Origin: Candidatus Magasanikiibacteriota bacterium
GTDB taxonomy: Bacteria; Patescibacteriota; Patescibacteriia; Magasanikbacterales; GWA2-37-8
Length of the DNA stretch: 64,000 nt
Direction of reading: 5' to 3'
NCBI GenBank assembly: GCA_041665405.1
Contig: JBAYIZ010000006.1
Coordinates: forward strand, 407 to 64,406
Shown here: positions 10,770 through 63,857 of the stretch, piece by piece
How positions within the stretch are numbered: position 1 is the stretch's first letter
How the letters are laid out: each line of letters begins with the position of its first letter
The notes under the pieces: generated by a model
Seen by the model: the letters and a program-made list of their open reading frames with translations, nothing else
What the model was told of the DNA's origin: nothing
Databases searched by the model: none
Translations under genes and position numbers: made by a program

Positions 10770-11006
10770 ACTAATTATATTTAAGCCAATACTACGCTAT
10801 TTTGCACAAAAAATCAAGACAAACAAAAAACTTCCTATAAGAAGAAGTTTTTTCTATTCTCATGTCGTTAACAACAACAGGAAAATGGATGCCTGCTTTT
10901 TTGTACCGTGAGCGCAGGCGAATCTCACATATTTTCCTTGCGGCGACTAGCCACGCATTAATCACATGCGCAACTTATCAAGCCGAATTGTGTTGGTACG
11001 GCGCGA

Positions 11007-11420
11007 TCAGCGCGCCTTGGGGGCGGCTGCTTCTCGCAGTTCGGCCAGCTTCCTGTCTACCTTTGGGGTGCCGAGGTGTTGCTTGGCCGCGAACACGAGC
11101 TTTGCGCGGGCAGATTGCACCGCCCTGTTCGAAGGACGACGGCCGGGTGGAGTCAAAGCCACCACCGCCTGCAACATTGCCTCCGTCGTCTGCTCGTCAC
11201 CCTGCTTGTACTCCCTGAGCGTGAACAGGACCTTCTCCACCTTCTCGTGGAGATCCCAGGACTCGCGCCAATACGGCCTGTCTTCGCCGGAATGGAACTT
11301 GTCGAGCATGGAGTGAGCCCTCCTCGACCTGAAGTAGCAAAGGACCAACACAAGCATCGACACGATGTTCACCGCAACACTGATACTGTGCCACATAGAA
11401 ATCCCCACTTCCTTCACCAT
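11007..11420 (-). CDS. small single-pass membrane protein encoded in G+C-rich islet 1
   Basis: The frame has G/C-rich third positions. It has an N-terminal TM segment (ISMWHSISVAVNIVSMLVLVLCYF) and a helical charged tail. The start could be ATG 11420, or ATG 11396 (preceded by AAGGAAGTGG). The track start at 11486 is probably an over-extension. Confidence 0.5.
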   Translation of the reverse strand: MVKEVGISMWHSISVAVNIVSMLVLVLCYFRSRRAHSMLDKFHSGEDRPYWRESWDLHEKVEKVLFTLREYKQGDEQTTEAMLQAVVALTPPGRRPSNRAVQSARAKLVFAAKQHLGTPKVDRKLAELREAAAPKAR

Positions 11421-11571
11421 TGCTGACGAAGATGTTAGCTCTCTAGTTGGCGCGGGATGACACATCCACGCCCTTGCGACAAGCAAGCGGCAGCCCAGCT
11501 ACCTCTACTTTTTCCTTACCAAAAGAAAAACTAGCCGTAGCTTGGCCAAAATATATTTCAAAGAACGTGTA

Positions 11572-11600
11572 AATATAGCACAAAACAACAATTTTGTCAA
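11572..11600 (-). promoter_or_regulatory. sigma70-type promoter reading into G+C-rich islet 1
   Basis: Minus strand reads TTGACA-17 nt-TATATT (TTGACAaaattgttgttttgtgcTATATT). Confidence 0.6.
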
Positions 11601-11678
11601 CAATACTGAAATAATGCACCGCAAACATCCAGCGGCTTTTGATTTTCTCTTACAGGCATGTTAAAATGAAAACTCAAT

Positions 11679-13715
11679 ATGATAAATTTTGAACAAGAAC
11701 TCAACCCGCAACAGCTGGACGTCGTGAAAAATGGCGACGGGCCTTGTTTGGTTTTAGCTGGGGCGGGATCGGGGAAAACTCGCACTATTACTTATCGGGT
11801 TGCCTATTTGTTGGAACAAGGTGTTGGCCCAGAAAATATTTTGTTGGTAACTTTTACCAATCGAGCGGCGAATGAAATGATTGAACGGGTAAGAAATTTG
11901 ATGAGTGGGGATTCCCGTTTGCACGGGAATGACATGCCGTGGTCAGGAACATTTCACCACATTGCCAATAAAATTTTACGACACTACGCACCACATTTAG
12001 GATACAAAAATAATTTTACTGTTTTGGATTCCGACGACAGCCAGGCGTTGATAAAATTGTGTATCAAAGAATTTAAAACCACCGAAAAATTTCCTTCGGC
12101 GAAAGTTGTGGGCGCAATTATTAGTTTTGCTCGTAATTCTCAAAAAAGTATTGAAGAAGTAATTGAAGATAAATTTAATAGCTGGTGGCACCTGTCTAGA
12201 ACTATTGGCGATGTCAGCTCACGATACGAACAAAAGAAAAAAGAATCCAACGCAATGGATTTTGATGATCTACTAATTAATTTTGCATTGTTATTAAACA
12301 CCCCAGCAATTCAAGAAAAGTTTTCCAATCAATTCAAATATATTTTGGTAGATGAGTATCAAGACACCAACAAACTACAAGCGAATATTATTGATAAATT
12401 AGCCAAAATACACCGTAATTTGTTGGTAGTTGGTGATGACGCCCAAAGTATTTATTCTTTCCGTGCGGCTGATATAAAAAATATTTTAAATTTTGAAGAA
12501 AAATATTCTGATGCGAAAATTTTTCGTTTGGAAATAAATTATCGTTCTCACCAAGAAATTTTGTCTTTGGCCAATAATGTTATCGCCAACAATCGTCATC
12601 AATATCCAAAAAAATTAAAAGCAGTAAAAGAAAATGGCATAAAACCAAATTTATATCCAAAAAATGATCAATCCGACGAAGCGAGTTTTATTGTAAAAAA
12701 AATAAATGAACTGATTGAACAAGGAACTCCAGAACACAAAATCGCTGTGCTGTTTCGTGCCGCTCATCATTCTCAAATGCTCGAAATGGAATTAGCCAAA
12801 GCAGGAATCGCTTATGATTATCGTGGCGGTTTGCGATTTTTTGAACGCGCTCACATCAAAGATGTTTTGAGTTATCTCAGAATATTAAATAATTTATCTG
12901 ACACCTCTGCGTGGTTGCGTATTCTCCAACACGAAGAAGGAATCGGACCGTCGGCTGCCAATAAAATTATTTCTGCCGTGCAAAAACTAGAAAAAATTGA
13001 TGACATAAAAAATCTTGGGGAAGTTTTAGGTGGAAAAACCCAAACCGGTTTTAATAATTTCTTAAAAATTTTTAATGCTCTCTTGGAATCGTATATTCCA
13101 GAAAGCAGCCCTGGTGATTTAATCCAATCCATTATCAGTTCGAATTATAGCGACTATTTGGAAGCAGAATTCATAGATAGTGATGACCGAAAAAAGGATT
13201 TGGAACAAATGGCCACCTTTGCCACCAAACACAAAAATTTATCTGATTTTTTGGCCGAATCTAGTTTGCAAGAGTCGTTTGCCCACCCGACATCCAACCA
13301 AACACAGACAAACAACCAAAAAAGGTTGGTGCTTTCCACTATTCATCAGGCCAAAGGACTGGAGTGGGAAGCGGTTTTTATAATCAATGTAGCCAACGAC
13401 GCCTTTCCCAACAGTCGTGCTTTGGCCGAAAGTGAAGGTCTGGAAGAAGAACGCCGTTTGTTTTATGTCGCTATTACTCGTGCCAAAAAACACTTAATTT
13501 TGACTTATCCAATGTCAAATGAGGGTTGGGGCTCCTCGCTGGGCGGTCCAAGCTTGTTTTTGTCTGAAATTAGCCAAGATTTGATTGATGACCACTCATT
13601 ATTATCCTATAAAAGCACTGTTTTTGATAAAAATGAAGAAATTCAATATATTAACGAAGATGAACCAATAAATATCCAACCTGGTAGTTTTTTGCGCAGT
13701 ATTGATGACTTATAA
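11679..13715 (+). CDS. UvrD/PcrA/Rep-family ATP-dependent DNA helicase
   Basis: Walker A motif (AGAGSGKTRT), motif Ia (TFTNRAANEM), DEYQDT, motif VI (VAITRAKK). Confidence 0.92.
   Translation: MINFEQELNPQQLDVVKNGDGPCLVLAGAGSGKTRTITYRVAYLLEQGVGPENILLVTFTNRAANEMIERVRNLMSGDSRLHGNDMPWSGTFHHIANKILRHYAPHLGYKNNFTVLDSDDSQALIKLCIKEFKTTEKFPSAKVVGAIISFARNSQKSIEEVIEDKFNSWWHLSRTIGDVSSRYEQKKKESNAMDFDDLLINFALLLNTPAIQEKFSNQFKYILVDEYQDTNKLQANIIDKLAKIHRNLLVVGDDAQSIYSFRAADIKNILNFEEKYSDAKIFRLEINYRSHQEILSLANNVIANNRHQYPKKLKAVKENGIKPNLYPKNDQSDEASFIVKKINELIEQGTPEHKIAVLFRAAHHSQMLEMELAKAGIAYDYRGGLRFFERAHIKDVLSYLRILNNLSDTSAWLRILQHEEGIGPSAANKIISAVQKLEKIDDIKNLGEVLGGKTQTGFNNFLKIFNALLESYIPESSPGDLIQSIISSNYSDYLEAEFIDSDDRKKDLEQMATFATKHKNLSDFLAESSLQESFAHPTSNQTQTNNQKRLVLSTIHQAKGLEWEAVFIINVANDAFPNSRALAESEGLEEERRLFYVAITRAKKHLILTYPMSNEGWGSSLGGPSLFLSEISQDLIDDHSLLSYKSTVFDKNEEIQYINEDEPINIQPGSFLRSIDDL
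11911..11933. repeat. ATTCCCG palindromic mini-element inside the helicase gene
   Basis: ATTCCCGTttgcACGGGAATGAC, translated as (G)DSRLHGND between helicase motifs Ia and Ib. Confidence 0.7.
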
Positions 13716-13823
13716 AAAAACATAAATACCAACAATAAAACAAAAGGACTTCACTGAGGTCTTTTTTTATTCTAGTTTTCACATTTTTGTGGTATAATAT
13801 ATTCGTAATTAATTTATAATCAT

Positions 13824-23159: not shown

Positions 23160-23348
23160 CTCCACAAACAAAAACATCCCGACTAAATCGAGATGTTTTA
23201 TTTTTAAAGCGTTTATATCACTCGCACAATCTGAAAACAAATTTTATTTTCAAATTGCGCGGCGAGTGACATCTACCGCGTCTGCCCCACCGCCCGCTTG
23301 TAGCGAGTGGGGCTACGATGGCTAGTCTCTACAAATTAGCCCTTCCAT

Positions 23349-23822
23349 CTAGAAGGTGCCCGCCCCCAAGGCGAGTTGGACCTCCCATCCGAAGGAGTTC
23401 TTCTCCACGACGTCCTGTTGCCAGCCGACAGGGGCTTTCAGGAAAACGCGGGCACGCCACAGCTTCATACTGACCATCGGACCAGCCCCGTACAACAGCC
23501 CGTCGTTGCCCTTCTGTCCAGAAAGGACCCCGCCGAAGTTGAACGTGAGCCCATCAACGATCACGTCATAGGTGACGCCGTAGGCCATGCCGTAGCCCGA
23601 TACTTGGGTCGGAACCCAGAACTGGGCGAAGTGGGTCGTGTGACCATCCGGCTGGACCAAGTAGAGGCCCATGCCGATGTCGGTGCCGTCCTCAAACCCG
23701 GCGTGTTGCACGAACAGGCCGGCCCCACCAGTCTCCGGACCAGGACCCTCAGCCAGGGCGACTGAAGGAACTGCGAAAAGGACGACGCTCACGATGACGA
23801 AAAACCACGCGATGTGCTTCAT
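23349..23822 (-). CDS. secreted small beta-barrel-like (OMP-like) protein encoded in G+C-rich islet 2
   Basis: ATG 23822 is preceded by GGAG at 7 nt. Signal peptide is MKHIAWFFVIVSVVLFAVPSVALA|EG. It has Gly/aromatic-rich alternating strands and a C-terminal ...LALGAGTF. Third codon positions are G/C-rich. The track start at 23957 lies in the AT-rich leader and is probably spurious. Confidence 0.6.
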   Translation of the reverse strand: MKHIAWFFVIVSVVLFAVPSVALAEGPGPETGGAGLFVQHAGFEDGTDIGMGLYLVQPDGHTTHFAQFWVPTQVSGYGMAYGVTYDVIVDGLTFNFGGVLSGQKGNDGLLYGAGPMVSMKLWRARVFLKAPVGWQQDVVEKNSFGWEVQLALGAGTF

Positions 23823-23994
23823 GGATTTACTCCGAAAACTAGAGTTCATCGGTACCCAGCCGACACACCACGCGACAATCATTGTCGAGAGGTAAGGGTG
23901 ATTATTTATTCCTATATACATTAGAAATACATAATTTCCTTTACCTCTTTGAGACATTATTTATCCATTATAATTTAAAAAGAACTAACTGAAC

Positions 23995-24023
23995 AGTATC
24001 ACACAAAACAATCAAATTGTCAA
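23995..24023 (-). promoter_or_regulatory. sigma70-type promoter reading into G+C-rich islet 2
   Basis: Minus strand reads TTGACAatttgattgttttgtgtGATACT (17-nt spacer). It sits back-to-back with the rpsL promoter. Confidence 0.55.
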
Positions 24024-27570: not shown

Positions 27571-27599
27571 TTGACAAAACTCCGTTTGTGTGCTATACT
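27571..27599 (+). promoter_or_regulatory. strong sigma70-type promoter of the unassigned transcript
   Basis: TTGACA-17 nt-TATACT, starting 3 nt after the right inverted repeat. Confidence 0.65.
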
Positions 27600-27605
27600 T
27601 AAATT

Positions 27606-27937
27606 GTAGTTCTTTACTACAATTTATATGTCCACTTATCAGTGGACCAAACCCATCGAACTGCTAAATAGAGAAGGGGATTCACAACTGCTGTACAAAT
27701 ATATTGAAGCGGTAGTGGCGAATCCAAACTTCTTGTCCGGTAACCTCAATCTTTGCGTCAATCTGACCTTTTGTGTCAGAATTACGCCTGAGGTATTACC
27801 TTCAAGCGGTCGGGGGTATCACTGTCTTGGTCTATGACAGCTCATCTATATGGTGACTGCTCTGATCATGTACAGCGCCTATAAGGGCAAGAGCCTTAAA
27901 ACTATGTTTATCGGGTTACTATGCCCTTATTTTTTTA
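27606..27937 (+). ncRNA. candidate about 330-nt noncoding RNA (class not recognised)
   Basis: It is bounded by a consensus promoter and a hairpin (AAGGGCA...TGCCCTT) plus T-run. Local hairpins: AAATTGTAG/CTACAATTT, GTCCAC/GTGGAC, CTGAC/GTCAG. Long-range pairing is possible between GCTGTACA (27690-97) and TGTACAGC (27869-76). The only ORF (69 aa) has no SD. Confidence 0.4.
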
Positions 27938-34452: not shown

Positions 34453-35034
34453 TTATTTTTCTAAAAACTTTTTTAAATATTTACCCAAAATGTCTGTTTC
34501 AATGTTTATTGAATCGCCAATTTTAATATCATGTAACATTGTCTTTTCCCATGTGAAGGGAATAATTCCAACCGTAAAAAACTTTGTATCTACGGAAATT
34601 ACTGTAAAAGAAATCCCGTTGATTGCGACTGATCCTTTTTTTACCACAAACTCTAAAACGTCACCAGGTGCTTTTATTTTTAACAAATGACTGTTGCCAT
34701 CACTTTCGATGGTTTGAACTGTCCCAACCCCATCCACGTGTCCTTGAACCACATGCCCAGACAAAAACGTGTTTACAGTTGCTGGTAGTTCGAAATTTAC
34801 CGTGTCTTTTATTTTTAATTTACCCAACATGGTTTTTTTCTGAGTTTCTGGCATTATTTCAACCAAAAAACTTTTTTTGCTTGGTTTTTTTACTATCGTC
34901 AAACAAACACCATTGATTGAAACGCTAGTTCCTTTTTTTAGTTTGTTACAAAAACTTTGGTCAGCAGAAAAAACAAACGACACGCCGTTCGTTTTTTCCA
35001 ACTTTCCCAAATTTTCTATAATTCCTGTAAACAT
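34453..35034 (-). CDS. ribE: riboflavin synthase alpha chain
   Basis: MFTGIIE N-terminus, with duplicated lumazine-binding repeats (SINGVCLT / AINGISFT). Confidence 0.9.
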   Translation of the reverse strand: MFTGIIENLGKLEKTNGVSFVFSADQSFCNKLKKGTSVSINGVCLTIVKKPSKKSFLVEIMPETQKKTMLGKLKIKDTVNFELPATVNTFLSGHVVQGHVDGVGTVQTIESDGNSHLLKIKAPGDVLEFVVKKGSVAINGISFTVISVDTKFFTVGIIPFTWEKTMLHDIKIGDSINIETDILGKYLKKFLEK

Positions 35035-35047
35035 AAAGAAAAAAACA

Positions 35048-36172
35048 TTATTGTCTTATCGGCATCACTATATAAACAAAACTGTCGTCGTTGGTTGGTA
35101 CAAAGAGACACGGGCTGTCTGCGTTTATCATTTTCAGCATACTGGTTTCTGATTTAATATTATTTAAACCATCCAAAACATATCGGTGGTTCAACATAAT
35201 AGCATTGTCGTCGCCGTTTGTTTCCGCACTTATTTCAGAACTATATTCACCCGTCTGGGAAGAAGTGGAGGAAAGTTTTACGACGCCTTCTTTACTACTA
35301 ATTATACAAGATATAGCGTTTACACCTATTGTGGTAAACAAACTGGCCATTTTAATTTCTTTACTCATCTTTCCAGTATCAAACATCGCAGATGTTTTGA
35401 ATTCTTTTGGTATAATTTGTGCATAGTCTGGATAATTTCCTTCTACTAAGCGAGAAACTAGTTGAATATTACCGTAGTGCATAGCAATTTGATTCTCTCC
35501 AACTAATATTCTAACGTTTTTTTCTTTTTCTTCATTATCCGCTAACGACAGTATGTGGATTATTTCTTGAGCAGTTCTACCCGGAACAATAATTTTAAAA
35601 TCTCCTTCTCCTTGTTGAATTTTAATTTTCTTTTCAGCCAATCTATAACTATCTGTAGCCGCCAATATTAAACCGGCATAATATGAAGTATTAAATCCAA
35701 AATACATTCCTGATAATTCCGGTCTTATTTCTGATTTAGCCAAAGAGGAAACAGTTTGTCCTAGTCCGCTCTTTAGTTGTTCTGCATCAAACAAAAATCC
35801 ATTTCCATCACTTACAGAAGGAATAACTGGAAATTCGTCAGCTGGTATTCCTTTTATTTTCGTTGATGATTTTCCACAGGTTATAACTAGCTCATTTTCT
35901 TTTAATTCCATTTCAATCTTTTCGTCAGAAAGTAAACTAACAAATTCACTAAGTGTTTTGGAAGGAACTGTAAACGAACCAGATTCATCCACTTTTGATC
36001 TCACGTGAGCAACTATTGCCAATTCTAGATTGGTTGCAATTATTTCTGTTTTTTGATCATCTGCTTTAATCAATATATTTCCCAGTATTGGAAGATTCAC
36101 ATTTTTATTTGCTATCCCTCCTACTATAGAAAGTGCTTTCGATAAATTATCTTTTGTACAAGTTATTTTCAT
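35048..36172 (-). CDS. dnaN: DNA polymerase III beta sliding clamp
   Basis: 374 aa, three-domain clamp pattern, located downstream of dnaA. Confidence 0.92.
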   Translation of the reverse strand: MKITCTKDNLSKALSIVGGIANKNVNLPILGNILIKADDQKTEIIATNLELAIVAHVRSKVDESGSFTVPSKTLSEFVSLLSDEKIEMELKENELVITCGKSSTKIKGIPADEFPVIPSVSDGNGFLFDAEQLKSGLGQTVSSLAKSEIRPELSGMYFGFNTSYYAGLILAATDSYRLAEKKIKIQQGEGDFKIIVPGRTAQEIIHILSLADNEEKEKNVRILVGENQIAMHYGNIQLVSRLVEGNYPDYAQIIPKEFKTSAMFDTGKMSKEIKMASLFTTIGVNAISCIISSKEGVVKLSSTSSQTGEYSSEISAETNGDDNAIMLNHRYVLDGLNNIKSETSMLKMINADSPCLFVPTNDDSFVYIVMPIRQ

Positions 36173-36447
36173 AAAGGATGGTGCGGGTTACATTATTTAA
36201 TTAAGTATATATATAAAATAATAATAGTAATAAGGCTGTGGAAAGGGTTAATAAGTCGTTTTTTGTTTTCAAATTAGCCAAGTTTAAGGTGAATAATTTT
36301 TTAACAGTTTGGTATAAAAGTGTGTGTGAAAAACGATTTATTTAAGTTTATTTATTTTCTGTTGATAAGTGGTTGACTTGTTCTTTTTATATTAACAACT
36401 TATTAACATTCTTTGCACACCATTTAGCGAAGAAAAAAAACCATGTT
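36173..36447. other. oriC candidate, part 1 (dnaA-dnaN spacer): AT-rich unwinding region plus degenerate DnaA boxes
   Basis: 275-nt noncoding spacer. AT-only tract at 36205-36232. TGTTGATAA (36360-68, 8/9 match to TGTGGATAA) and TGTGGAAAG (36237-45). Confidence 0.55.
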
Positions 36448-37842
36448 TTAGATATTATTGATATATAAACGCTGTCTTATTAATTCTAGTTCTTGTTTTA
36501 GTTTTAAATCATTATCTATTTCTTTGGTAATTTTTTCGTTGGCATGCATCGCTGTGGTGTGATCGCGTCCGCCCAGCTCATCGCCAATGGAAGGGAAAGA
36601 CATTTTAAGATCATTACGCAAAATATACATAATAATCTGGCGAGGATAAGAGAGCTTCTTTTCTCGGCTTTTACCACAAACATTTTCGGTGGAAACATTG
36701 AAAAAGGTGCAAACAGTCTCTATGGTCTGTTGTGATGTGACTGAACGTCTAGCCGAAGCAGAATCAAAACTAGAAAGAATTGATTTTACTGATTCGGCTG
36801 TCGGGGCCATATTTTTTAATTGATGATAAGCAATAATTTTATTTAGGGCGCCTTCAAGCTCACGAATGTTGCTCTGAACAATAGTAGCAACTGTATTTAG
36901 GGTTTTGTCGTCCAAAACAAAATTCTTTTCTTGGCACTTTTTGCCCAAAATAGCGACACGTGTTTCAAAATCAGGGGCAGAAACATCCACAATCATTCCC
37001 CACTCGAAGCGAGATTTGAGGCGATCCTCAAGGGCAGGGATGGCTTTTGGTGGGCGGTCAGAAGTTAAAATTACCTGCTTGTTTGCCTGGTGGAGCTCGT
37101 TAAAAGTATGAAAAAACGATTCTTGGCTGGCATCTTTGCCAGCGATGAACTGAATATCATCAATTAACAAAGCGTCGATAGTACGATAGCGGTTTTGGAA
37201 GTCTCTCGCTCCACCACTACGCAAAGAAGTAATAAAATCGTTGGTAAATTTCTCAGCACTAACATACAAGATATTGGTTTGAGGGTTTTTTTTCAACAAT
37301 TCATTGCCAACCGCCTGTAAAAGATGGGTTTTCCCCAAACCTACACCACCGTAGATAAACAGTGGATTGTAGGCCTCACCAGGACGGTCTGCCACTGCCT
37401 TGGCGGCGGTGAAAGCCAATTCGGAGCCTTTGCCAACCACAAAACTATCAAAATTGTATTTTGGGTTAATGGTAAATCCATGAGAAGCGACAGATTGGTG
37501 ACTAGTTTGTTGAGAGTATGAAGGTGTTTTTTCGTTTTCATGAGATACCGACGGGGAAGGAGGGGTGTTTATTGGTTGTTCCACAACATTTTTGATATTT
37601 TCGATCTTGTATTCCATCCTTCTAATAGGAAGGGCGGTGACCCTCTCTAAAGATTGGATGATTTGGTGGTGGTGTTTTTTTTCAATCCACGCCTGATTAA
37701 AGGTGTTTGGGACGCAGACAATAACATGGCCTTCTTGAAAACTAACAATACCAGTATTTTTGAACCAGGTGTTAAAATTCGCTTTGGAAATGGTTAATTC
37801 TAATTCAGATAAAACAGCCTGCCAAATTTCATTATTAGTCAT
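36448..37842 (-). CDS. dnaA: chromosomal replication initiator DnaA
   Basis: AAA+ Walker A GGVGLGKTHL, a sensor region, and the C-terminal DnaA signature (GGRDHTTAMHA). Confidence 0.96.
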   Translation of the reverse strand: MTNNEIWQAVLSELELTISKANFNTWFKNTGIVSFQEGHVIVCVPNTFNQAWIEKKHHHQIIQSLERVTALPIRRMEYKIENIKNVVEQPINTPPSPSVSHENEKTPSYSQQTSHQSVASHGFTINPKYNFDSFVVGKGSELAFTAAKAVADRPGEAYNPLFIYGGVGLGKTHLLQAVGNELLKKNPQTNILYVSAEKFTNDFITSLRSGGARDFQNRYRTIDALLIDDIQFIAGKDASQESFFHTFNELHQANKQVILTSDRPPKAIPALEDRLKSRFEWGMIVDVSAPDFETRVAILGKKCQEKNFVLDDKTLNTVATIVQSNIRELEGALNKIIAYHQLKNMAPTAESVKSILSSFDSASARRSVTSQQTIETVCTFFNVSTENVCGKSREKKLSYPRQIIMYILRNDLKMSFPSIGDELGGRDHTTAMHANEKITKEIDNDLKLKQELELIRQRLYINNI

Positions 37843-38017
37843 AGATTGATAGTTTTATAAAACTTTTATGTTATTTTAGCACAGAAACACATCTATTAAA
37901 ACGTCGGAAATTAGCTAAAAGTGCAAAATATGTGGATAAACTGGGGATACTGTGGATTGTTGACTAAAAGCCGTTTATATGGTAATATATTCAACATAAT
38001 ACATTAAATAAAAAGGT
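37843..38017. other. oriC candidate, part 2 / dnaA promoter region with DnaA boxes
   Basis: Perfect TGTGGATAA at 37931-37939 and TGTGGATTG at 37951-37959. Confidence 0.6.
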
Positions 38018-38197
38018 ATGGCAACTAAACGAACTTATCAACCAAGTAAAAAACATCGTGCAAAAGCACACGGATTCATGGAAAGAATGTCCACAAAGAA
38101 TGGACGGACAGTACTTTCTAGACGTCGTGCCAAGGGGCGCAAGAAGCTAACAGTGTCAGATGAAAAATCTGGAAAATTGTTAAGAAAAGCCAAATAA
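38018..38197 (+). CDS. rpmH: 50S ribosomal protein L34 with a C-terminal extension
   Basis: My own translation: [59 protein letters not shown] (59 aa). It is below the track cutoff. A hairpin terminator follows at 38202-38227. Confidence 0.9.
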
Positions 38198-38245
38198 TCT
38201 TAAACCCCCGATTGAATCGGGGTTTTTATTTGGTATAATATTGTT

Positions 38246-38641
38246 ATGTATAGAAAAGAAAACCATTTGACCAAGGTGCGAGATTTCAATCTCGTTTTAA
38301 AACAAGGATATTGGATAAATGATCTGTTTTTTAGTTTAAAAGTATTAGACTTAGCCAAAAAAGAGGCTTATTTTCCACCCAAAGAAGATAAGGATAAGTT
38401 CAAAAAACAGCTTAAGTTAGCGGTGAATGTTGGGTTAAAGGTGTCTAAAAGTGCTGTTGTGCGCAATCGGGCAAAAAGGCAGGTTGTGGAGGTGTTGAGG
38501 GCGATGATGGCCAAAGATGAAATATTGGAAGGGTATTATTTGTTTTTTGTGGCGAAGCCGAATATCAAGGAGAAAAGTTTTGCTGAGATAAGCGATGAAG
38601 TGAAACTATTATTGCAAAAGGCAAACGTGCTAAAGAGGTAA
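38246..38641 (+). CDS. rnpA: ribonuclease P protein component
   Basis: Position after rpmH. The RNR motif context is present (VVRNRAKRQVVEVLR). Confidence 0.85.
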   Translation: MYRKENHLTKVRDFNLVLKQGYWINDLFFSLKVLDLAKKEAYFPPKEDKDKFKKQLKLAVNVGLKVSKSAVVRNRAKRQVVEVLRAMMAKDEILEGYYLFFVAKPNIKEKSFAEISDEVKLLLQKANVLKR

Positions 38642-38644
38642 TTT

Positions 38645-38739
38645 AAAAAACTTTTATTTTATTTCGCTTTTTTTGCCCGCGAGGGCAAAAGGATGAAGCC
38701 GCGGCTTCATAACCCGCTCAATTAAAATAAAAGTTTTTT
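38645..38739 (+). ncRNA. candidate structured RNA / terminator-embedded repeat, copy 2
   Basis: A 17-bp outer stem (AAAAAACTTTTATTTTA/TAAAATAAAAGTTTTTT) encloses the core TTTCGCTTTTTTTGCCCGCGAGGGCAAAAGGATGAAGCCGCGGCTTCATAACCCGCTCAA. Confidence 0.5.
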
Positions 38740-44157: not shown

Positions 44158-44271
44158 ATATGTATGATTAAAAATACTTCGCAATATTATCTTAAAACAC
44201 AAAAAAAGTCAATTTTATGGCTGTGGTATTGCTTTTTTGAGGATGTTGGTGTATATTTTTTAAATCCACCC

Positions 44272-44529
44272 GTGGCCAGGTCGTGTTATATAGACACAGC
44301 CTCGGCGACTATAGCGAAAGAGGGGAAACCATGGCGCGAGCCAAACCGGCAACGGACACGTGTTGAGGTACATGTTCGATTCCAGTTCAACCTCAGGCCG
44401 CAACAACGGGCTGAGGAGGCCACGCAGAAGGCCAAGAAGTGGCAGAGGGACAACCCGGGCTGGGGCTGTGATCCCAACCCCACGACGATCGGCAACGGCT
44501 ACGCTACCTTCAGGGCTCGTCGCACCTGA
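44272..44529 (+). pseudogene. G+C-rich islet 3 ORF with unresolved start (possibly frameshifted or a gene fragment)
   Basis: G/C-rich third positions mark this frame from about 44380 to TGA 44527-29 (...QQRAEEATQKAKKWQRDNPGWGCDPNPTTIGNGYATFRARRT). The only SD+ATG (GAGGGG-N6-ATG 44331) is in another frame and stops after 11 codons. The in-frame candidates are GTG 44272, or the AT-rich extension at 44149. Confidence 0.3.
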
Positions 44530-44660
44530 CGACGATCAACCTCTTCGACGCACACCCCCAGTCGAGCACAAGTTGCTCCTGGGGGCGGGGCTTAGATGAA
44601 ATTATCCTTCCTGTCCTAAGTAGAAAAAATATTTTCTTTTTAGGACAAGGATAATTTCTT

Positions 44661-44707: not shown

Positions 44708-44731
44708 GATTCCCGCTTTCGCGGGAATGAC
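44708..44731. repeat. ATTCCCG palindromic mini-element, intergenic
   Basis: GATTCCCGCtttcGCGGGAATGAC, about 20 nt from the hppA stop. Confidence 0.75.
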
Positions 44732-48312: not shown

Positions 48313-48339
48313 TCGAAATAGCAGTAGTGCTGTAGAACA

Positions 48340-48437
48340 AACATCCCAGACAATGACTTTTTCGCTTTTTTCGACCGCGAGGTCGAAAGGATGAGCCTCG
48401 GCTCATAACCCGCTCAAAAGTAATTGTCTGGGATGTT
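48340..48437 (+). ncRNA. candidate structured RNA / terminator-embedded repeat, copy 3
   Basis: A 15-bp perfect outer stem (AACATCCCAGACAAT/ATTGTCTGGGATGTT) is followed by a T7 run. It encloses the core TTTTTCGCTTTTTTCGACCGCGAGGTCGAAAGGATGAGCCTCGGCTCATAACCCGCTCAAAAG. Confidence 0.55.
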
Positions 48438-48453
48438 TTTTTGTACCATAAAA

Positions 48454-48482
48454 TTGACTTTGTGTTTTTTATCAAGTAAAAT
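48454..48482 (+). promoter_or_regulatory. sigma70-type promoter reading into G+C-rich islet 4
   Basis: TTGACT-17 nt-TAAAAT. The composition switches to G+C-rich about 6 nt downstream. Confidence 0.6.
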
Positions 48483-48576
48483 ATTTTTGTGTCCCAAACG
48501 ACCGACGGTTCGCCGTTCGGTCACAACGACCACTTGCACCGCTCATCGGTGGTGGTCTCGAAAAGGAGAGAGAGCC

Positions 48577-48798
48577 ATGCGTGTGCTTCCCTCGATCCTG
48601 AACCAGAGCCGGAGACGGAGCGACAATTCCGCCGATTGCGGGCAGGTCGCGAGCTCCGAGGCCGACTTCATCCACAGGCAACTGCTCGAGCATGGCTTCT
48701 GCTCGGACATGAAGGAGGGCGCCGTCGGCACCGCCAACATGGTCGGCATCGTCTGTTCGACCGCGGCCGGCCGCGGAGCAGTAGTCCTCCTGGTGTAG
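48577..48798 (+). CDS. 73-aa protein of unknown function encoded in G+C-rich islet 4
   Basis: AAGGAG sits 8 nt before the ATG. By my codon-by-codon read, G/C at codon position 3 is very high in this frame only. Sequence: MRVLPSILNQSRRRSDNSADCGQVASSEADFIHRQLLEHGFCSDMKEGAVGTANMVGIVCSTAAGRGAVVLLV. Confidence 0.55.
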   Translation: MRVLPSILNQSRRRSDNSADCGQVASSEADFIHRQLLEHGFCSDMKEGAVGTANMVGIVCSTAAGRGAVVLLV

Positions 48799-48827
48799 GG
48801 CTCAGCTTCGTACGAGACAACCAGTGC

Positions 48828-48881
48828 GGCCGGACCGGGAGCTCCTTCGGGGGTTTCTGGTCCGGCCGTCGTTTCCTTTTT
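48828..48881 (+). terminator. GC-rich hairpin terminator after the islet 4 ORF
   Basis: GGCCGGACC...GGTCCGGCC (9 bp), followed by gtcgTTTCCTTTTTATT. Confidence 0.55.
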
Positions 48882-48962
48882 ATTATATTTAATACTCAAA
48901 GCGGGTATTTTTTTATTGCTCAAAAAAGGGTTTGCGTGTAAAATAAGAACGAATAATATTTT

Positions 48963-55485: not shown

Positions 55486-56220
55486 ATGGAAAATTTGAAT
55501 ATTCTAAAAGAACTCGGTTTAGACGACCAAGAAGCGAGTGTATATATGGCTTTATTAAAATTGGGTGGATCTCAAGCCAGTGTTGTAGCCAAAGATGTTG
55601 GCATTAAACGGACAACAGTTTACCCTGTTTTGCAGGCGTTGGCGGCCAAAGGGATGGTAAATGTTTATTTTCGAAAAAACCGCCATTTCTATTATGCTCA
55701 AAAACCAAATAGAGTGGTGGGTATTTTCAAAAAGAAAATAGAATCATTTGAAAGTATTATTCCAATGTTGGAACTAGTTGAAAAAAAACAAGTGATGGCC
55801 ACGGGTTTGCGCTTTATTGAAACAGTTGAAGAATTAAAACAATTTTATAACGGAATTTTAGATGAGTATAAAGGGAAGCAATATCTGGCAATTGGAAATA
55901 CGGCGGCATGGGAGGGATTGGAACCAGAATTTTTTGTAAACTTTCGTAGACAAAGAGCAGAAAATAAAATTAAAACGAAATTACTATTAACATTTAATTC
56001 TGTCGAAATAAATCCAATAGAAACCTCGCTATTAAGAGAGTGGAAATATCTTCCTGAAAAATATAAATTTCAAAGTACGATAGATATTTTTAATGATAAA
56101 ATTTTGATTGTGAGTCCGGAGCTAAGTTCGTTGGCGGTGGTGATCGCGGTGCCGGCGATGACGGATATTTTTAAATCTGTTTTTGAGATGTTGTGGCAGA
56201 TGTTGCCGGAGGTGAAATAA
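55486..56220 (+). CDS. TrmB-family winged-HTH transcriptional regulator (paralog 1, short form)
   Basis: N-terminus LKELGLDDQEASVYMALLKLGGSQASVVAKDVGIKRTTVYPVLQALAAKGMV. A TTGACA-17-TAAAAT promoter lies at about 55413-55441. Confidence 0.8.
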   Translation: MENLNILKELGLDDQEASVYMALLKLGGSQASVVAKDVGIKRTTVYPVLQALAAKGMVNVYFRKNRHFYYAQKPNRVVGIFKKKIESFESIIPMLELVEKKQVMATGLRFIETVEELKQFYNGILDEYKGKQYLAIGNTAAWEGLEPEFFVNFRRQRAENKIKTKLLLTFNSVEINPIETSLLREWKYLPEKYKFQSTIDIFNDKILIVSPELSSLAVVIAVPAMTDIFKSVFEMLWQMLPEVK

Positions 56221-56226: not shown

Positions 56227-56261
56227 CAAAAAACCGATTGCAATATGCAGTCGGTTTTTTT
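56227..56261 (+). terminator. conserved terminator shared by the TrmB-like modules (copy 1)
   Basis: AAAAAACCGATTGCaataTGCAGTCGGTTTTTTT. Near-identical copies are at 61129 and 63042. Confidence 0.8.
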
Positions 56262-59948: not shown

Positions 59949-61118
59949 ATGCTGATAAAAGACCTCCAATCTATCGGTTTTACCAAGAATCTATCTGAGG
60001 TTTATTTGTCTTTAGCCCAATTGGGAGGCCAGGCCAAAGCTGGGGAAATCATCAAAAAGACAGGTTTACACCGAAATATCGTTTATATTTGTTTAGACAA
60101 ACTAATAGAAAAGCAATTATTAACTAAAACCGAAGAACGCGGTGTTACTATTTATAAAACACTAGATCCAGCCCGACTAATGAATGAAATTCGAGAAAAA
60201 GAACAATTAACAACAAATATTATTGAAGAAATTGAAGCATTAAAAAAGCATCCAGACACTCAAGAAATAATTGTCCACGAAGGTTTGGAAGGTTTTAGAA
60301 ATTTCAATCTCTATACTTTGAAAAAAATCGAAGAAGGTGGCACATTGCAAGTGCTTGGTTCCATTGGAGATAAATGGTTTGAATACATGGGTGAAGAAAA
60401 GTACAAAGAATATATAAAAATACAAAACAAGAAAAAAATTAAGTGGGAGATGATTACTTATTTTGATTCAAAACGCGACAAACAATTTATTAATGACTAT
60501 CCAGAATTATGCGAGGTAAAATTATTACCGCAGACATATGATAATCCGGCCAGCATTTATATTTTTGGAGATACAATTTCAATAAATATTTTTACCGAAC
60601 CATTTTCGGTGATTGAAATAAAAAATCGCGCGGTGGCGGATGTATATAGAAATTATTTTAGTTTGTTGTGGAACCAAGAAGTGTTTACCTATCGCGGTTG
60701 GGATGCGATTGATAAAATTTTGTGTGCGAATTTGGAAGATGGATTTACTTATGATGTTTTTGGGGCAACATATGGTGTGGGTACAAAAGAGGAACAAGAT
60801 CGCGTGTTGGAATTTTTTATGGAGAACCACAGAAAGACCGCACACTTTAAACCAAATAGACGATTGATATTTTTTGAACAAGATCGTGAGCAGGCGGCTA
60901 AAGAAGTTTCTCCGTTGGATGCAGACACTCGTAAAAATGTTCGTTTGCGTTTTCTGTCAGACAAATATTTTTCGCCGATGGAGACACATTTGTTTAAAGA
61001 TAAAGTAATTTTAATTTTTTCTTTTGGCGAACCAATCGCGACAGTTTATACCAATCCAAAAATAATTGAAGTTTACAAAAAACAATTTGAGTTGTGGTGG
61101 GGGATGTCGGTGGAATAA
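59949..61118 (+). CDS. TrmB-like wHTH regulator with a large C-terminal domain (paralog 2)
   Basis: N-terminus LQSIGFTKNLSEVYLSLAQLGGQAKAGEIIKKTGLHRNIVYICLDKLIEKQLL. It shares GLHRN(I/L)VY and (L/F)WNQE with paralog 3. Confidence 0.75.
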   Translation: MLIKDLQSIGFTKNLSEVYLSLAQLGGQAKAGEIIKKTGLHRNIVYICLDKLIEKQLLTKTEERGVTIYKTLDPARLMNEIREKEQLTTNIIEEIEALKKHPDTQEIIVHEGLEGFRNFNLYTLKKIEEGGTLQVLGSIGDKWFEYMGEEKYKEYIKIQNKKKIKWEMITYFDSKRDKQFINDYPELCEVKLLPQTYDNPASIYIFGDTISINIFTEPFSVIEIKNRAVADVYRNYFSLLWNQEVFTYRGWDAIDKILCANLEDGFTYDVFGATYGVGTKEEQDRVLEFFMENHRKTAHFKPNRRLIFFEQDREQAAKEVSPLDADTRKNVRLRFLSDKYFSPMETHLFKDKVILIFSFGEPIATVYTNPKIIEVYKKQFELWWGMSVE

Positions 61119-61128
61119 AATTTAAAAA

Positions 61129-61162
61129 CAAAAAACCGATTGCAGATTGCAGTCGGTTTTTT
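61129..61162 (+). terminator. conserved TrmB-module terminator (copy 2)
   Basis: AAAAAACCGATTGCagatTGCAGTCGGTTTTTTG. Confidence 0.8.
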
Positions 61163-61308
61163 GATAACTTCTTGAGCTCAACAAGATGTTGGAGTGAATG
61201 AGCGGTCACTACCAGCCGCGTGACTTTTTGTTTTACCGGTAGTCACAAACCGGATGATCCCAGACCCCTCATCAGCGGACCATTGAATTGTCCTGAAACT
61301 TTGCACCT

Positions 61309-61707
61309 CTACGCCTGTTCGCGACAGGGCAGGCATTCGTAGCCCACCCAAAGGCCGTTGGCAAAGGTGAAGTCGAAGTCCCAGCGGTTGTCACCACCGT
61401 ACCAGCAGAGGCTGGCAGTGTATTTGAATCCATTGGGGGCGAGAAGAGTGGTGCCAGTGAGCACGATCTTCTTCTTACGCATTTTCATCGGAATCTGGTC
61501 TTGGTGGTCAAGCAGTTGCTGGCCGTCACGCACTCCAAGGACGCCATTCCGACGACGTGCGCGTTCGCGCAATTCGGAGCCCTTGATGCATTCCTCGCCA
61601 CGCTTGAGGCACGACTCGATCCGGAGCTTGTTGATGTGAAGATCTGCAATTGGATCACAGTCTTCCACAACCTTAAACTCCACCCTGTTCCAAACGAATG
61701 TATTCAC
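61309..61707 (-). CDS. 132-aa cytoplasmic protein of unknown function encoded in G+C-rich islet 5
   Basis: The GTG start is preceded by AAGGAGG at 6 nt. The frame is open across the whole G+C-rich segment. No signal peptide and no family recognised. Confidence 0.6.
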   Translation of the reverse strand: MNTFVWNRVEFKVVEDCDPIADLHINKLRIESCLKRGEECIKGSELRERARRRNGVLGVRDGQQLLDHQDQIPMKMRKKKIVLTGTTLLAPNGFKYTASLCWYGGDNRWDFDFTFANGLWVGYECLPCREQA

Positions 61708-61775
61708 CTTTCACCTCCTTGCGGTTCTGACAGGTTGGTTGCTCTGAAGAGAGCAATTGTTGTTAACAACTCAAT

Positions 61776-61804
61776 AAAATATCATATTTCACTTTATTGG
61801 TCAA
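61776..61804 (-). promoter_or_regulatory. sigma70-type promoter reading into G+C-rich islet 5
   Basis: Minus strand reads TTGACC-17 nt-TATTTT. It is homologous to the islet 6 promoter. Confidence 0.5.
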
Positions 61805-61865
61805 TCATTTTATCCCTAAAATTAGCAAAAAAATCAGATAAAAGCTGACAAAATTATGTTGGGGG

Positions 61866-61894: not shown

Positions 61895-61918
61895 AATCAT
61901 CATAAATAATATGACAAT

Positions 61919-63031
61919 ATGTTAGAACAAAAACTAGAAAAACTTGGTTTTGGAAAAAACGAAGTGAAAGTATATCTAGCTCTTTTTGATTTGGGTAAAT
62001 GTAAAGCCAAACAAATCATTGATAACACAGGTCTTCATCGTAATCTTGTCTACACGGCACTTGATGATTTGATTGGAAAGAAATTAATTTCAAAAGTCGA
62101 GAGTAATGGAATTTTTTTATTTTGGGTTAATAGCCCTGAACTTTTGAACGAAATAATAGAAGAAAAAGCTATAACGGCAAAAGAAGTGATTGAACAATTA
62201 AAAAAGAAAAGCGCCAGTCAACCTCGTGAGATATTAATTTATGAAGGTGAAGAGGGTGTGAAGAAAAGTCGCACCAAAGTTTTAACATATGGAAAAGGAG
62301 ATACATTTTATATGTTAGGAACAAAAGCGAGTTTCTCGCCTTCGATGGAAAAATTTTCAAAGGAGTTTGATTCGCTAAGAATTAAAAAGGGAATTTATTC
62401 AAAAATTTTAGTCGAACATGATGTGAATAAAGATGAACTTAAACATCTTAATAAAATGCCACTTAGTGAAGCCAAGCACCTTCCTCTTGATTTGGAAATG
62501 CCTATTTGGTTTTCAGTTATTCAAGATTATTTGGAAATTGGCATCCCAGGCGTTGATCCACTGATTTTTTCGATAAAAAATAAAGCGGTGGCTGGGGCAA
62601 TAAAAAAATTTATAGATTTTTTCTGGAATCAAGAATCCGAAGTTGTTACAGGCGCAAAGGCTTTACAAGAGATTATGTTGGAATCCATTGATTATGGTGA
62701 GTTGAAAGGTATCGGCGCAAAAGGCAATTTTTTTGAAAATTATCCGGGATTTTTTAATGATATAAAAAAGCGAGCAGTAATGAAACAAGGACTGGTCTGG
62801 AGAAACATTGTTGATCCAAGTATGAAAGGGCATGAGATTACAAAATTTTTGTGGACTAAAACAAAATATAATTTATCCGATACAAAAAATCCCAATGTTG
62901 TTTGGTTGTATGGCCCGAAAGCTGTGATTATAAATTGGGCGGATAAAGAACCTGTGATGTTTGTTTCTACAAATAAGGCGCTAGTGCAAAGTTATAATGA
63001 TTATTTTGAGGAGATGTGGGGTAAAGATTAA
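61919..63031 (+). CDS. TrmB-like wHTH regulator with a large C-terminal domain (paralog 3)
   Basis: N-terminus MLEQKLEKLGFGKNEVKVYLALFDLGKCKAKQIIDNTGLHRNLVYTALDDLIGKKLI. Confidence 0.75.
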   Translation: MLEQKLEKLGFGKNEVKVYLALFDLGKCKAKQIIDNTGLHRNLVYTALDDLIGKKLISKVESNGIFLFWVNSPELLNEIIEEKAITAKEVIEQLKKKSASQPREILIYEGEEGVKKSRTKVLTYGKGDTFYMLGTKASFSPSMEKFSKEFDSLRIKKGIYSKILVEHDVNKDELKHLNKMPLSEAKHLPLDLEMPIWFSVIQDYLEIGIPGVDPLIFSIKNKAVAGAIKKFIDFFWNQESEVVTGAKALQEIMLESIDYGELKGIGAKGNFFENYPGFFNDIKKRAVMKQGLVWRNIVDPSMKGHEITKFLWTKTKYNLSDTKNPNVVWLYGPKAVIINWADKEPVMFVSTNKALVQSYNDYFEEMWGKD

Positions 63032-63041
63032 CACTAAGAAC

Positions 63042-63075
63042 AAAAAACCGATTGCGATATGCAGTCGGTTTTTTA
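63042..63075 (+). terminator. conserved TrmB-module terminator (copy 3)
   Basis: AAAAAACCGATTGCgataTGCAGTCGGTTTTTTA. Confidence 0.8.
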
Positions 63076-63168
63076 ATTACTTCTTGAACCAAAATGATTT
63101 AGTTCGAAAAGTAGCTGCGCGTCTTTTTGACCGGGACGCGCAACCGGGTGAGAGGGTGGAACCGGACG

Positions 63169-63660
63169 TCACAGGAATGCGATTCCCAGTGACGGCTGGA
63201 ACAGCAACGAGTAATCGCCGCCATCCAGGGTCTTCGCCAGTCCAAATGCCATGGACAGCGACAGACCGTTTCCGATTCCGTAGGCCAGGCCGGTGCCCAG
63301 ACCAACCAAGTCGGAAGACGGCTTGCCGCCGTAACCGACATTGCGCTGGTAGAGCACGCTGGCCTGGGTGGACCAACGATCAGTCAGTCCCAGCGACACA
63401 CCTGCAGAGAGGCGTGGGCTGGGCTTGCAACTGTCGTTGGGGGTGGCCAGCCCGATTCCGCCCGCGATGGACACCTTGTTGGAGACCTTCTCCGACAGCG
63501 AGATGTCGTAGCGGGTGGAGGCCGAGGCGGGGGTGAGCCCGTCCTTCAGGAGGACGACGTAGCCCTCCCGGATGTTGAAGACCGGGGTCAGGGCGCTGGC
63601 CGAAGCCGAGACACCGCTCAGAACCACGGCCACCAGGACGATCAGGGTGGAGATCTTCAT
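63169..63660 (-). CDS. secreted small beta-barrel-like (OMP-like) protein encoded in G+C-rich islet 6
   Basis: GAGGTG lies 4 nt before the ATG. Signal peptide is MKISTLIVLVAVVLSGVSASASA|L. The protein has Gly-rich alternating strands and a C-terminal ...QPSLGIAFL. Confidence 0.6.
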   Translation of the reverse strand: MKISTLIVLVAVVLSGVSASASALTPVFNIREGYVVLLKDGLTPASASTRYDISLSEKVSNKVSIAGGIGLATPNDSCKPSPRLSAGVSLGLTDRWSTQASVLYQRNVGYGGKPSSDLVGLGTGLAYGIGNGLSLSMAFGLAKTLDGGDYSLLFQPSLGIAFL

Positions 63661-63736
63661 GGGACACCTCTGCAGACCAGAAGGCCTGCCATCTGCATTA
63701 GTCAGTCAGGTTGCATTTGCGAACCCATACTGCTTT

Positions 63737-63786
63737 TGCCAGACGAAATAGTTCACAATAGATCTTATGGACTATTTCGTCTGGCA
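63737..63786 (-). promoter_or_regulatory. 16-bp perfect hairpin in the 5' leader of the islet 6 gene
   Basis: TGCCAGACGAAATAGT-N18-ACTATTTCGTCTGGCA lies between the promoter (63829-57) and the ATG (63660). No T-run follows it. Confidence 0.5.
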
Positions 63787-63828
63787 GTTGTAAAGAACAG
63801 TGTTACGGGTTATTGATCGTAACAAGCC

Positions 63829-63857
63829 AGTATATCATATATTTGTATACTTGTCAA
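63829..63857 (-). promoter_or_regulatory. sigma70-type promoter reading into G+C-rich islet 6
   Basis: Minus strand reads TTGACA-17 nt-TATACT. Confidence 0.6.

Follow-up and report, generated by a model that had tools for sequence, protein, structure and literature searches.

A 64,000-nucleotide stretch of chromosome from a Candidatus Magasanikbacteria bacterium of the Candidate Phyla Radiation (CPR), known from a metagenome-assembled genome (MAG; GCA_041665405.1, contig JBAYIZ010000006.1, positions 407 to 64,406; this whole stretch is referred to as the window), carries six short islets, I1 to I6, that are sharply richer in G+C than their surroundings. The window is core chromosome around oriC: the cumulative GC-skew minimum lies at about 36 kb, beside dnaA and dnaN (dnaN, dnaA and rnpA lie at about 35000-38700), and the window therefore spans the replication origin. 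Among its other genes are tgt, uvrD, a type IV pilus cluster (PilB, PilC), rpsL, rpsG, fusA, a class A penicillin-binding protein gene, tig, genes for an H+-pyrophosphatase (PPase) and an M23/LysM peptidase, tRNA-Cys, polA, an ABC transporter and an array of TrmB-like regulator genes. Replication runs in the same direction as I1-I4 and head-on to I5 and I6.

The six segments had been picked out in an earlier sequence-only reading of this DNA, which also held that each contains one small open reading frame (ORF) marked by G/C-rich third codon positions; both points stand. Exactly six segments exceed the background (I1, 10900-11510, 57% G+C; I2, 23245-23895, 59%; I3, 44265-44600, 60%; I4, 48488-48885, 63%; I5, 61190-61750, 54%; I6, 63081-63740, 61%) in a window of 38.4% G+C overall. 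Their peaks of 0.58-0.66 correspond to z = 4.6-6.5 over 300-nt windows outside the islets (mean 0.375, sd 0.045, maximum 0.487), and their 150-nt flanks have 26-38% G+C. The analyses of GC and of third-position G+C (GC3) which that reading had proposed confirm the deviation and the coding signal alike: a single ORF per islet has a GC3 of 0.63-0.82, vs. 0.23-0.43 in 34 native genes. GC1 and GC2 are raised as well, the untranslated regions (UTRs) have 49-61% G+C, and both the UTRs and each of the three codon positions have the composition of a genome with about 60% G+C. Codon usage is inverted relative to the resident genes (AAG 91% vs. 17%, ATC 92% vs. 21%, TTC 84% vs. 18%), the codons TTA, CTA and ATA do not occur in the islet ORFs, and amino-acid composition is shifted too. 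The G+C-rich block coincides with the predicted transcribed body, from UTR through terminator hairpin, while promoter and leader are AT-rich. The islets code for protein, as tested directly for I6 and deduced from codon periodicity for the remaining islets. The codon bias of highly expressed genes is ruled out as the cause of their composition, GC3 being only 0.34-0.39 in rpsL, rpsG and fusA.

Judging by its predicted elements, each islet is a complete, autonomous transcription unit with promoter, leader, Shine-Dalgarno (SD) sequence, ORF and terminator, set in an intergenic slot. The islet promoters rank among the best sigma-70-like sites of their regions in a promoter scan (I3 is not listed). 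I1 (10830..11600, minus strand) is divergent from uvrD and convergent with tgt; its promoter (TTGACA-17-TATATT, 11600-11572, minus strand; scan 11/12) is followed by an AT-rich leader, a GC-rich 5'UTR, an ORF at 11007-11396 (minus strand; 129 aa, GC3 0.77) encoding an N-terminal membrane helix and a helical domain, a GC-rich 3'UTR and a T-tailed hairpin at about 10833-10860. I2 (23171..24023, minus strand) lies back to back with the rpsL promoter; its own promoter (24023-23995, minus strand; scan 10/12) and a 100-nt AT-rich leader precede an ORF at 23349-23822 (minus strand; 157 aa, GC3 0.78) for a beta-rich protein with an AxA signal peptide and the C-terminus GTF, and a GC-rich 3'UTR ends in a bidirectional terminator at 23171-23199.

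I3 (44229..44660, plus strand), divergent from tig and convergent with the PPase gene, is the irregular member. Its promoter (TTGCTT-17-TATATT, 44229-44257, plus strand) was identified by eye and is absent from the sites listed by the scan. The only in-frame start of the GC3-rich frame (44272-44529, plus strand; 85 aa) is a GTG at 44272, which lacks an SD sequence. A good SD sequence and ATG at 44331 lie one base off that frame and open an 11-codon frame (44331-44366) that ends in TGA, which makes I3 appear frameshifted, decaying or unusually initiated. A GC hairpin and an AT-rich hairpin terminator (about 44598-44660) follow.

I4 (48454..48880, plus strand) lies between tRNA-Cys and polA. It had been placed about 180 nt after the tRNA gene; a conserved 105-nt structured element, described below, intervenes. 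Its G+C-rich stretch begins about 7 nt past the -10 box of the promoter (TTGACT-17-TAAAAT, 48454-48482, plus strand; scan 10/12), and a 5'UTR with two hairpins, an ORF at 48577-48798 (plus strand; 73 aa) and a GC-rich intrinsic terminator at 48826-48869 (plus strand) follow. I5 (61138..61804, minus strand) is divergent from the TrmB-like gene at 61919-63031 and consists of a promoter (TTGACC-17-TATTTT, 61804-61776, minus strand; scan 9/12), an ORF at 61309-61707 (minus strand; 132 aa, GC3 0.67) that has the SD sequence AAGGAGG before a GTG start and encodes no signal peptide, and a terminator at 61138-61170. I6 (63042..63857, minus strand), divergent from the TrmB-like gene that starts at 63977, has a promoter (TTGACA-17-TATACT, 63857-63829, minus strand; scan 11/12), a conserved leader with hairpins, an ORF at 63169-63660 (minus strand; 163 aa, GC3 0.82) encoding an AxA signal peptide and eight beta strands, and a terminator at 63042-63074.

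The details given in the sequence-only reading survive this description in part. All four SD-spacer-start strings that it quoted are present as written. Its range of ORF lengths, 66-163 aa, is right at the upper end (I6), and the 66-aa ORF of I3 is wrong, the ATG being out of frame. The TTGAC-type promoter that it saw before every islet is present at I1, I4, I5 and I6 and is replaced at I3 by TTGCTT. The third of its three look-alike promoters, TTGACAaaactccg..., at 27571-27599, precedes a 69-aa ORF of ordinary G+C, not an islet. This promoter, which resembles those of I1 and I2, opens a seventh small promoter-leader-ORF unit (27571-27930, plus strand; ORF 27628-27837) between fusA and a dksA-like gene, with an ordinary G+C of about 43%; it could be a slot gene of this type that is either older or native.

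The slots can be followed among relatives. A species-level genome scan with trigger factor gave about 30 related loci (these and other loci and contigs are denoted by L numbers) in which the order polA - M23 - PPase - tig is conserved. The I4 slot (tRNA-Cys/ncRNA to polA) is empty in L004, L009, L013 and L022, is occupied in the window, L008 and L010 by a different small gene in each case, always behind a TTGACT-17-TAnAAT promoter of its own, and holds two G+C-rich genes in L012. The I3 slot (PPase-tig) is empty in L005, L007, L011, L013 and L022; L006 and L010 have other small membrane-protein genes there, L008 and L012 other G+C-rich genes, and L004 a diverged I3 homologue, recognised by eye (KQWLCDNPDW vs. 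KKWQRDNPGW) and missed by tblastn, with 46% G+C and the same AT-rich terminator hairpin. In L049 the I2 slot, from a response regulator gene to rpsL, is an empty 174 nt, and the I1 slot (tgt-uvrD) contains an unrelated 104-aa gene of ordinary G+C with a similarly placed promoter. L003 has the order TrmB1 (94% identical) - I6 - TrmB3 and lacks I5 together with TrmB2, and the I5+TrmB2 unit is therefore an indel. Thus the synteny comparison that had been suggested finds slots empty or filled with other small genes: in the relatives sampled, the sequences show islets restricted to this lineage, patchily present at syntenic sites, and slots otherwise empty or taken by other small genes with apparent promoters of their own.

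The same comparisons bear on how the genes are expressed. In every empty-slot comparison (I2, I3, I4) the promoter lies inside the insert, and the I6 promoter and leader travel along with the gene; the proposal that foreign genes were wired behind resident promoters is therefore not supported. Hints of cargo exchange come from the I1 slot of L049 and from I5, in which an unrelated ORF stands before a 3'UTR of the outer membrane protein (OMP) type. This 3'UTR behind an unrelated ORF is the sole support for the earlier idea of cargo in a resident slot.

I5 and I6 form a sub-class that alternates with TrmB-like winged helix-turn-helix (wHTH) paralogues, arrayed at 55486-56220 (244 aa), 59949-61118 (389 aa), 61919-63031 (370 aa) and 63977-64000, the last continuing off the window (650 aa in L001). 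The second and third are on the plus strand and of native AT-rich composition; TrmB GC3 is 0.27-0.35. The C-terminal domain of these proteins, about 130 aa, occurs in one to three copies, and a search of the PDB found no sequence relative. TAGCCAAA boxes flank both divergent promoters, and the TrmB-like proteins are likely regulators of I5 and I6.

The sub-class is also marked at its 3' end. A 3'UTR motif, putatively an H-type pseudoknot, is common to I5 (61220-61253, minus strand), I6 (63116-63147, minus strand) and OMP-like genes of L003 (1153-1181), L010, L013 (545-579) and L044 (two genes; 2531-2562). It lies directly upstream of the terminator in the TrmB-associated cassettes, with a conserved ..AAGAAG between motif and terminator. 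Helix A, CCGGT/ACCGG, has a compensatory variant, CCAGT/ACTGG, and helix B occurs in four complementary versions (TGTGAC/GTCACG, GCGCGTC/GACGCGC, GCGCAT/ATGCGC and GCGCGC/GCGCGC). A structure-aware scan of 810 kb found the motif only at these cassettes, with 10 overlapping hits at 7 sites, three of the hits being one window I6 copy seen in L001, L002 and the window; shuffles gave 0-2. The 3'UTR of I5 is about 85% alike, by eye, to that of the L010/L013 barrel genes, to which its ORF is unrelated, and this suggests that an ORF was swapped within an otherwise conserved expression context.

The same bidirectional terminator, AAAAAACCGAYTGCA..TGCARTCGGTTTTTT, follows three of the TrmB-like paralogues, at 56228-56260, 61138-61170 and 63042-63074, and occurs in L003 and L013. 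The absence of integrase, transposase and direct repeats noted in the sequence-only reading holds for the enzymes, with none among 30 tested window ORFs, and needs qualifying in one respect, a repeated terminator and a shared structured 3' motif following both I5 and I6. In an all-against-all blastn comparison of the six islets no sequence is shared except in this I5/I6 3'/terminator region, and a mobile-element signature common to the islets was rejected.

The I6 family provides a measure of age. It is known from five related genomes, including the window: the L003 copy occupies the same slot and is 78% identical, the L044 copy (on the same contig as L008) is 53% identical with the same TrmB partner and leader, and the L010/L013 copies are 27-30% identical. 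The genes of L044, L010 and L013 lie downstream of polA. A divergent TrmB-like gene is paired with the I6 copy in the window, L003 and L044, and promoter, leader hairpins and TAGCCAAA boxes are common to the window and L044 copies. TrmB partners and barrels have diverged to a similar degree (51% vs. 53% identity), a pattern that fits co-inheritance. Across the five members dN/dS (the nonsynonymous to synonymous rate ratio) is 0.23-0.27, a sign of purifying selection, with changes concentrated at third positions. The dS values range from 0.6 to >2, much like the 0.7-2.7 of polA, PPase and M23 between the same genomes, and codon choices at conserved residues differ between clades at frequencies of 0.60-0.70, where saturation predicts 0.61-0.64. 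All members nevertheless have a GC3 of 0.63-0.82, next to TrmB genes at 0.27-0.35.

A second pair of relatives, L045/L048 (flank dS 0.4-0.9, flank GC3 0.14-0.23), has two islet genes in common, one at 51% identity (GC3 0.80 and 0.70), the other at 86% (GC3 0.68 and 0.73). The I6 family has thus stayed GC-rich past synonymous saturation, the L045/L048 families follow the same pattern, and the description "recent and unameliorated", suggested earlier for all six islets, therefore fails for these families. The I6 family even comes close to being what would speak against any capture of the recent kind, a conserved, vertically inherited gene with the same G+C in relatives. Signs of decay are seen as well: GC3 is 0.65 in the L003 I6 copy vs. 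0.82 in the window, and the I3 homologue of L004 is down to 46% G+C. The dN of cassette genes is several-fold above that of their neighbours.

Other relatives carry islets too, at L044 1963-2529 (plus strand), L012 7121-7550 and L033 201-850; one of them is a second signal-peptide, beta-rich OMP-like gene. Relatives with 49-54% G+C genomes have islets of 67-70% G+C, always richer than their own genome.

The encoded proteins are orphans. The six ORFs gave nothing above threshold against Pfam, NCBIfam, PHROGs and PADLOC, and I6 reached 19.4 bits (E = 1.3e-3) against PF13505 (OMP_b-brl), below the cut-off of 28.7. Some of the relatives' islet ORFs were compared with Pfam, PHROGs or PADLOC, likewise with nothing above threshold except DUF3865 in one distant islet. 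A search of 5.8 billion proteins found one homologue of I6 (78% identity) and none of I2, for which an exhaustive HMMER search over 1.84 billion representatives also gave nothing credible. A metagenome scan with an I6-family profile added one locus only, from a related genome, and exact-sequence look-ups of I1 and I5 returned nothing, gene callers having probably chosen other starts. Viral-contig scans of four islet proteins, I1 among them, were empty, and a phage origin was rejected on this ground. These searches gave no homologue of I6 or I2 outside the clade; the comparisons that were to reveal the taxonomy of the donor brought up neither a host donor nor any other.

Two narrower ideas were also discarded. 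I2 and I5 are not diverged members of the I6 family, no similarity having been found. The G+C-richer Patescibacteria were rejected as donors on account of their codon dialect: L033 and L012 (GC3 0.61-0.64) prefer CGC, AAA (68-82%) and GAA (67-70%) and use AGG at 5% or less, whereas AAG and GAG are the preferred codons of the islets, and AGG is abundant in I1 and I3. The AAG/GAG/AGG dialect is absent from all sampled Patescibacteria, including L033 and L012.

The prediction for I6 is a secreted beta-barrel of eight strands, of the OmpX/Ail-like type. Its AlphaFold (AF2) model has a signal helix and eight strands, and the best Foldseek matches in the PDB are Ail, NspA, OmpX and the OmpA transmembrane domain (TM 0.54-0.59, probability 1.0). 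According to this model, which is of moderate confidence, the protein would share a Sec signal peptide and eight antiparallel amphipathic strands with OmpX, Ail, NspA and the OmpA N-terminal domain, and an aromatic residue in or beside the C-terminal position, usual in small OMP barrels, recurs in the family (..YRF in L010/L013). It differs from OMP_b-brl members in its sub-threshold Pfam score and in coming from a lineage regarded as monoderm (PMC12102498), in which neither an outer membrane nor BAM (barrel assembly) machinery is expected for such a barrel. The I2 model (pLDDT 49) is too weak for classification and its fold matches are not meaningful; I3, I4 and I5 are small proteins with no type assigned.

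The reading we favour, at about an even chance of being right, is that the islets are long-lived accessory cassettes resembling morons, that they probably derive from a foreign, high-GC source, and that they undergo turnover at hot-spot slots. Composition, reversed codon usage and patchy presence make a foreign ultimate origin plausible. As a class, the islets are not recent arrivals; since the I6 family is still GC-rich past saturation, some force must slow or oppose amelioration, e.g., selection on transcript or codons, or GC-biased recombination. The G+C-rich blocks would have been transferred horizontally from one or several non-patescibacterial donors with a G+C content of about 60%, genome streamlining would have trimmed each to a single functional gene, and each would have gained or kept a promoter of the local type. 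Cassettes could then spread, be lost or have their ORF replaced via recombination at the slots, in a genome whose window encodes type IV pilus machinery. Their fast-evolving products may work at the cell surface, where contact with a host cell is plausible.

Several observations weigh against this account. The case for horizontal origin is compositional throughout, with no donor homologue for any islet protein, and high GC3 kept for so long fits poorly with a simple transfer and neutral amelioration thereafter: from flank dS, a rough two-rate model predicts a GC3 of about 0.5 or less, where 0.63-0.82 is observed. Six precise single-gene units out of six, with AT-rich promoters owned by the inserts, are unlike the random integration of foreign fragments. 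For I1, I2, I4 and I5 no orthologue is known among sampled relatives, I3 may be a pseudogene, and the I6 barrel model has a pLDDT of 63 and an alignment of two sequences behind it.

Recent capture, as first proposed for these islets, would have unameliorated genes arriving from a high-GC donor, perhaps the host of an epibiont, and dropping behind resident promoters. It appears unlikely. A composition that is foreign at all codon positions and in the UTRs is what it predicts, and the empty I2, I3 and I4 slots, the missing I5 of L003 and the lack of any orthologue of I1, I2 and I4 in sampled relatives agree with it, as do the similarly placed promoter before a different gene in the I1 slot of L049 and the unrelated ORF with an OMP-type 3'UTR in I5. 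An apparent excess of GC-to-AT changes on the L003, L044, L010 and L013 branches would point to ongoing amelioration; this polarised third-position test was set aside, its saturated and G+C-rich outgroup biasing it toward GC-to-AT. Against it, I6 and the two L045/L048 families are positionally conserved at flank dS 0.4-2 and still G+C-rich. In addition, the promoters belong to the inserts, and neither the searches of 5.8 billion and 1.84 billion proteins nor the metagenome and viral contigs yielded a donor.

Equally doubtful is the view that the islets are native, lineage-specific genes whose G+C was created and is maintained by transcript selection (for stability or structure, for resistance to AU-directed RNases, or through deliberately rare codons for secreted proteins) or by GC-biased conversion, so that no foreign origin is needed. 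The coincidence of the G+C block with the transcribed body, behind an AT-rich promoter and leader, speaks for this view, and so do a GC3 that survives synonymous saturation beside AT-rich partner genes, orphan proteins confined to the clade, and slots that are hot spots of recombination and turnover; the AGG excess of I1 and I3 can be derived from native AGA by third-position A-to-G changes. Yet the low GC3 of the ribosomal-protein and EF-G genes excludes expression-linked codon bias, the boundaries are very sharp (I4), unlike the gradients of conversion tracts, and amino-acid composition is shifted too. The I3 homologue of L004 and the I6 copy of L003, lower in G+C than the window copies, indicate decay rather than maintenance. 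We know of no precedent for protein genes kept 20-25 G+C points above their own genome.

An improbable, more speculative variant holds that G+C-richness is a maintained functional trait of clade-wide effector cassettes, OmpX/Ail-like barrels among them. Their genes would stay in a foreign codon dialect because transcripts or products act on or in a G+C-rich diderm host. For instance, barrels would be inserted into the host outer membrane, or nucleic acid would be handed to the host. A weaker version would have an unrecognised force, such as transcript-level selection or GC-biased conversion at the slots, keep the genes 20-25 G+C points above the genome over evolutionary time.

G+C-rich intergenic regions of AT-rich genomes are usually structured RNAs. 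The islets have stable UTR hairpins, and a covarying 3' motif follows I5 and I6, but it is very improbable that they are non-coding RNAs with fortuitous ORFs: three-base periodicity is strong, GC3 is well above GC2, SD sequences, start codons and signal peptides are present, I6-family substitutions fall mostly at third positions with the dN/dS given above, and the islets have no sequence in common. Rfam recognised two tRNAs only (at the gathering threshold over the whole window and at an E-value threshold around islet 4). Lastly, sharp compositional junctions in a MAG might betray foreign G+C-rich reads joined into a CPR contig by assembly or binning, an explanation effectively refuted by the I6 and I2 junctions at 100% identity in independent contigs (L001 from JGI, L002/L051 from Logan), by orthologous islets whose contexts are the same in further MAGs obtained from different samples, and by the tidiness of each islet, with its local-type promoter and terminator.

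The nearest known kinds are phage morons and compositionally atypical genomic islets. Morons, e.g., lambda lom and bor, are independent promoter-ORF-terminator units, and like them the islets place an own promoter, one ORF and an own terminator, all of deviant composition, between genes that are adjacent in relatives. Lom itself is an 8-stranded barrel of the Ail/Lom type, and Ail is among the best structural matches of the I6 model. Unlike morons, the islets lie in a cellular core chromosome, near tgt, uvrD, rpsL, tig, the H+-PPase gene, polA, dnaA and dnaN, with no phage genes nearby and no PHROG or viral-contig matches, and their bearer is a presumed monoderm CPR bacterium. With acquired islets subject to Lawrence-Ochman amelioration they have in common atypical G+C and codons, patchy presence and orphan products. 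As a rule, acquired and orphan genes exceed their genome in A+T; these exceed it by 20-25 points in G+C, with no mobility genes and no donor found, and their composition persists through synonymous saturation.

Integron cassettes are a third comparison, being small single-ORF units, mostly orphans, and variable between relatives; the structured element just 3' of the ORF in I5, I6 and related OMP-like cassettes is an integron-like trait. However, the window ORFs tested include no integrase, the window has no attI, the islets have their own promoters and are dispersed or interleaved with regulators rather than arranged head to tail, and the 3' motif does not match the R''/R' GTTRRRY pair of an attC site. 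An attC-like 3' element was also rejected as a general hallmark of the islets, as it is present in TrmB-associated cassettes only and absent from I1-I4.

Against these known kinds the islets stand out in four ways: their bias runs in an unusual direction, their composition persists, a CPR core genome shows turnover slot by slot, and a presumed monoderm encodes a predicted OMP-type barrel, Patescibacteria being treated as monoderm (PMC12102498). CPR bacteria are thought to be epibionts, and hardly anything is known of the molecules with which they act on their hosts. Here a clade has small, fast-evolving orphan genes, several of them predicted to be secreted, at fixed hot spots and recognisable by composition alone, and the cassettes, including the OMP-type barrel, supply a small set of testable candidates for factors that act at the surface or on the host. 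The islets also question the rule that atypical G+C means recent transfer, for atypical composition outlives synonymous saturation here: either amelioration stalls for very long, or composition is selected gene by gene. Even if the cassettes were ordinary old transfers, they would be a caution for the detection of horizontal gene transfer in MAGs.

Some smaller elements lie in or near the slots. The conserved structured element that separates tRNA-Cys from islet 4 (48334-48443, plus strand; about 105 nt) recurs in L004, L008, L013 and L022 and twice in L009, where one copy sits in the PPase-tig slot. Its long outer stem, which closes with a T-run, encloses two inner hairpins around the conserved core TTTTCGCTTTTTT..AAAGGATG..ATAACCCGCTCAAA, and in six copies compensatory double changes occur at 19/38 predicted pairs. 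Rfam gave no family match, chance miRNA hits only, and the element appears to be a small RNA or RNA-like repeat, present in several copies in this clade and not described before. In L005, an AT-rich insert at about 250-1000 (minus strand of the locus), between the M23 gene and tRNA-Cys, encodes a protein with two LAGLIDADG-like motifs (LGFLYADGS and VRGYFDGDG) and resembles a free-standing gene of the homing-endonuclease type.

A 24-nt palindromic repeat, GTCATTCCCG-NNNNN-CGGGAATC, is present at 10174-10197, 11910-11933 and 44708-44731 (all minus strand), three copies in the window where 0.08 are expected, and has many copies in L004, L008, L019, L021, L029, L030 and L033. Such REP-like GTCATTCCCG..CGGGAATC hairpins were considered as cassette ends and rejected, since they are scattered, occur within tgt and uvrD and do not bound the islets; other copies are intergenic, beside cassette slots. 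The two inside tgt and uvrD leave the frames uninterrupted and add about 8 residues, reminiscent of the Rickettsia palindromic elements.

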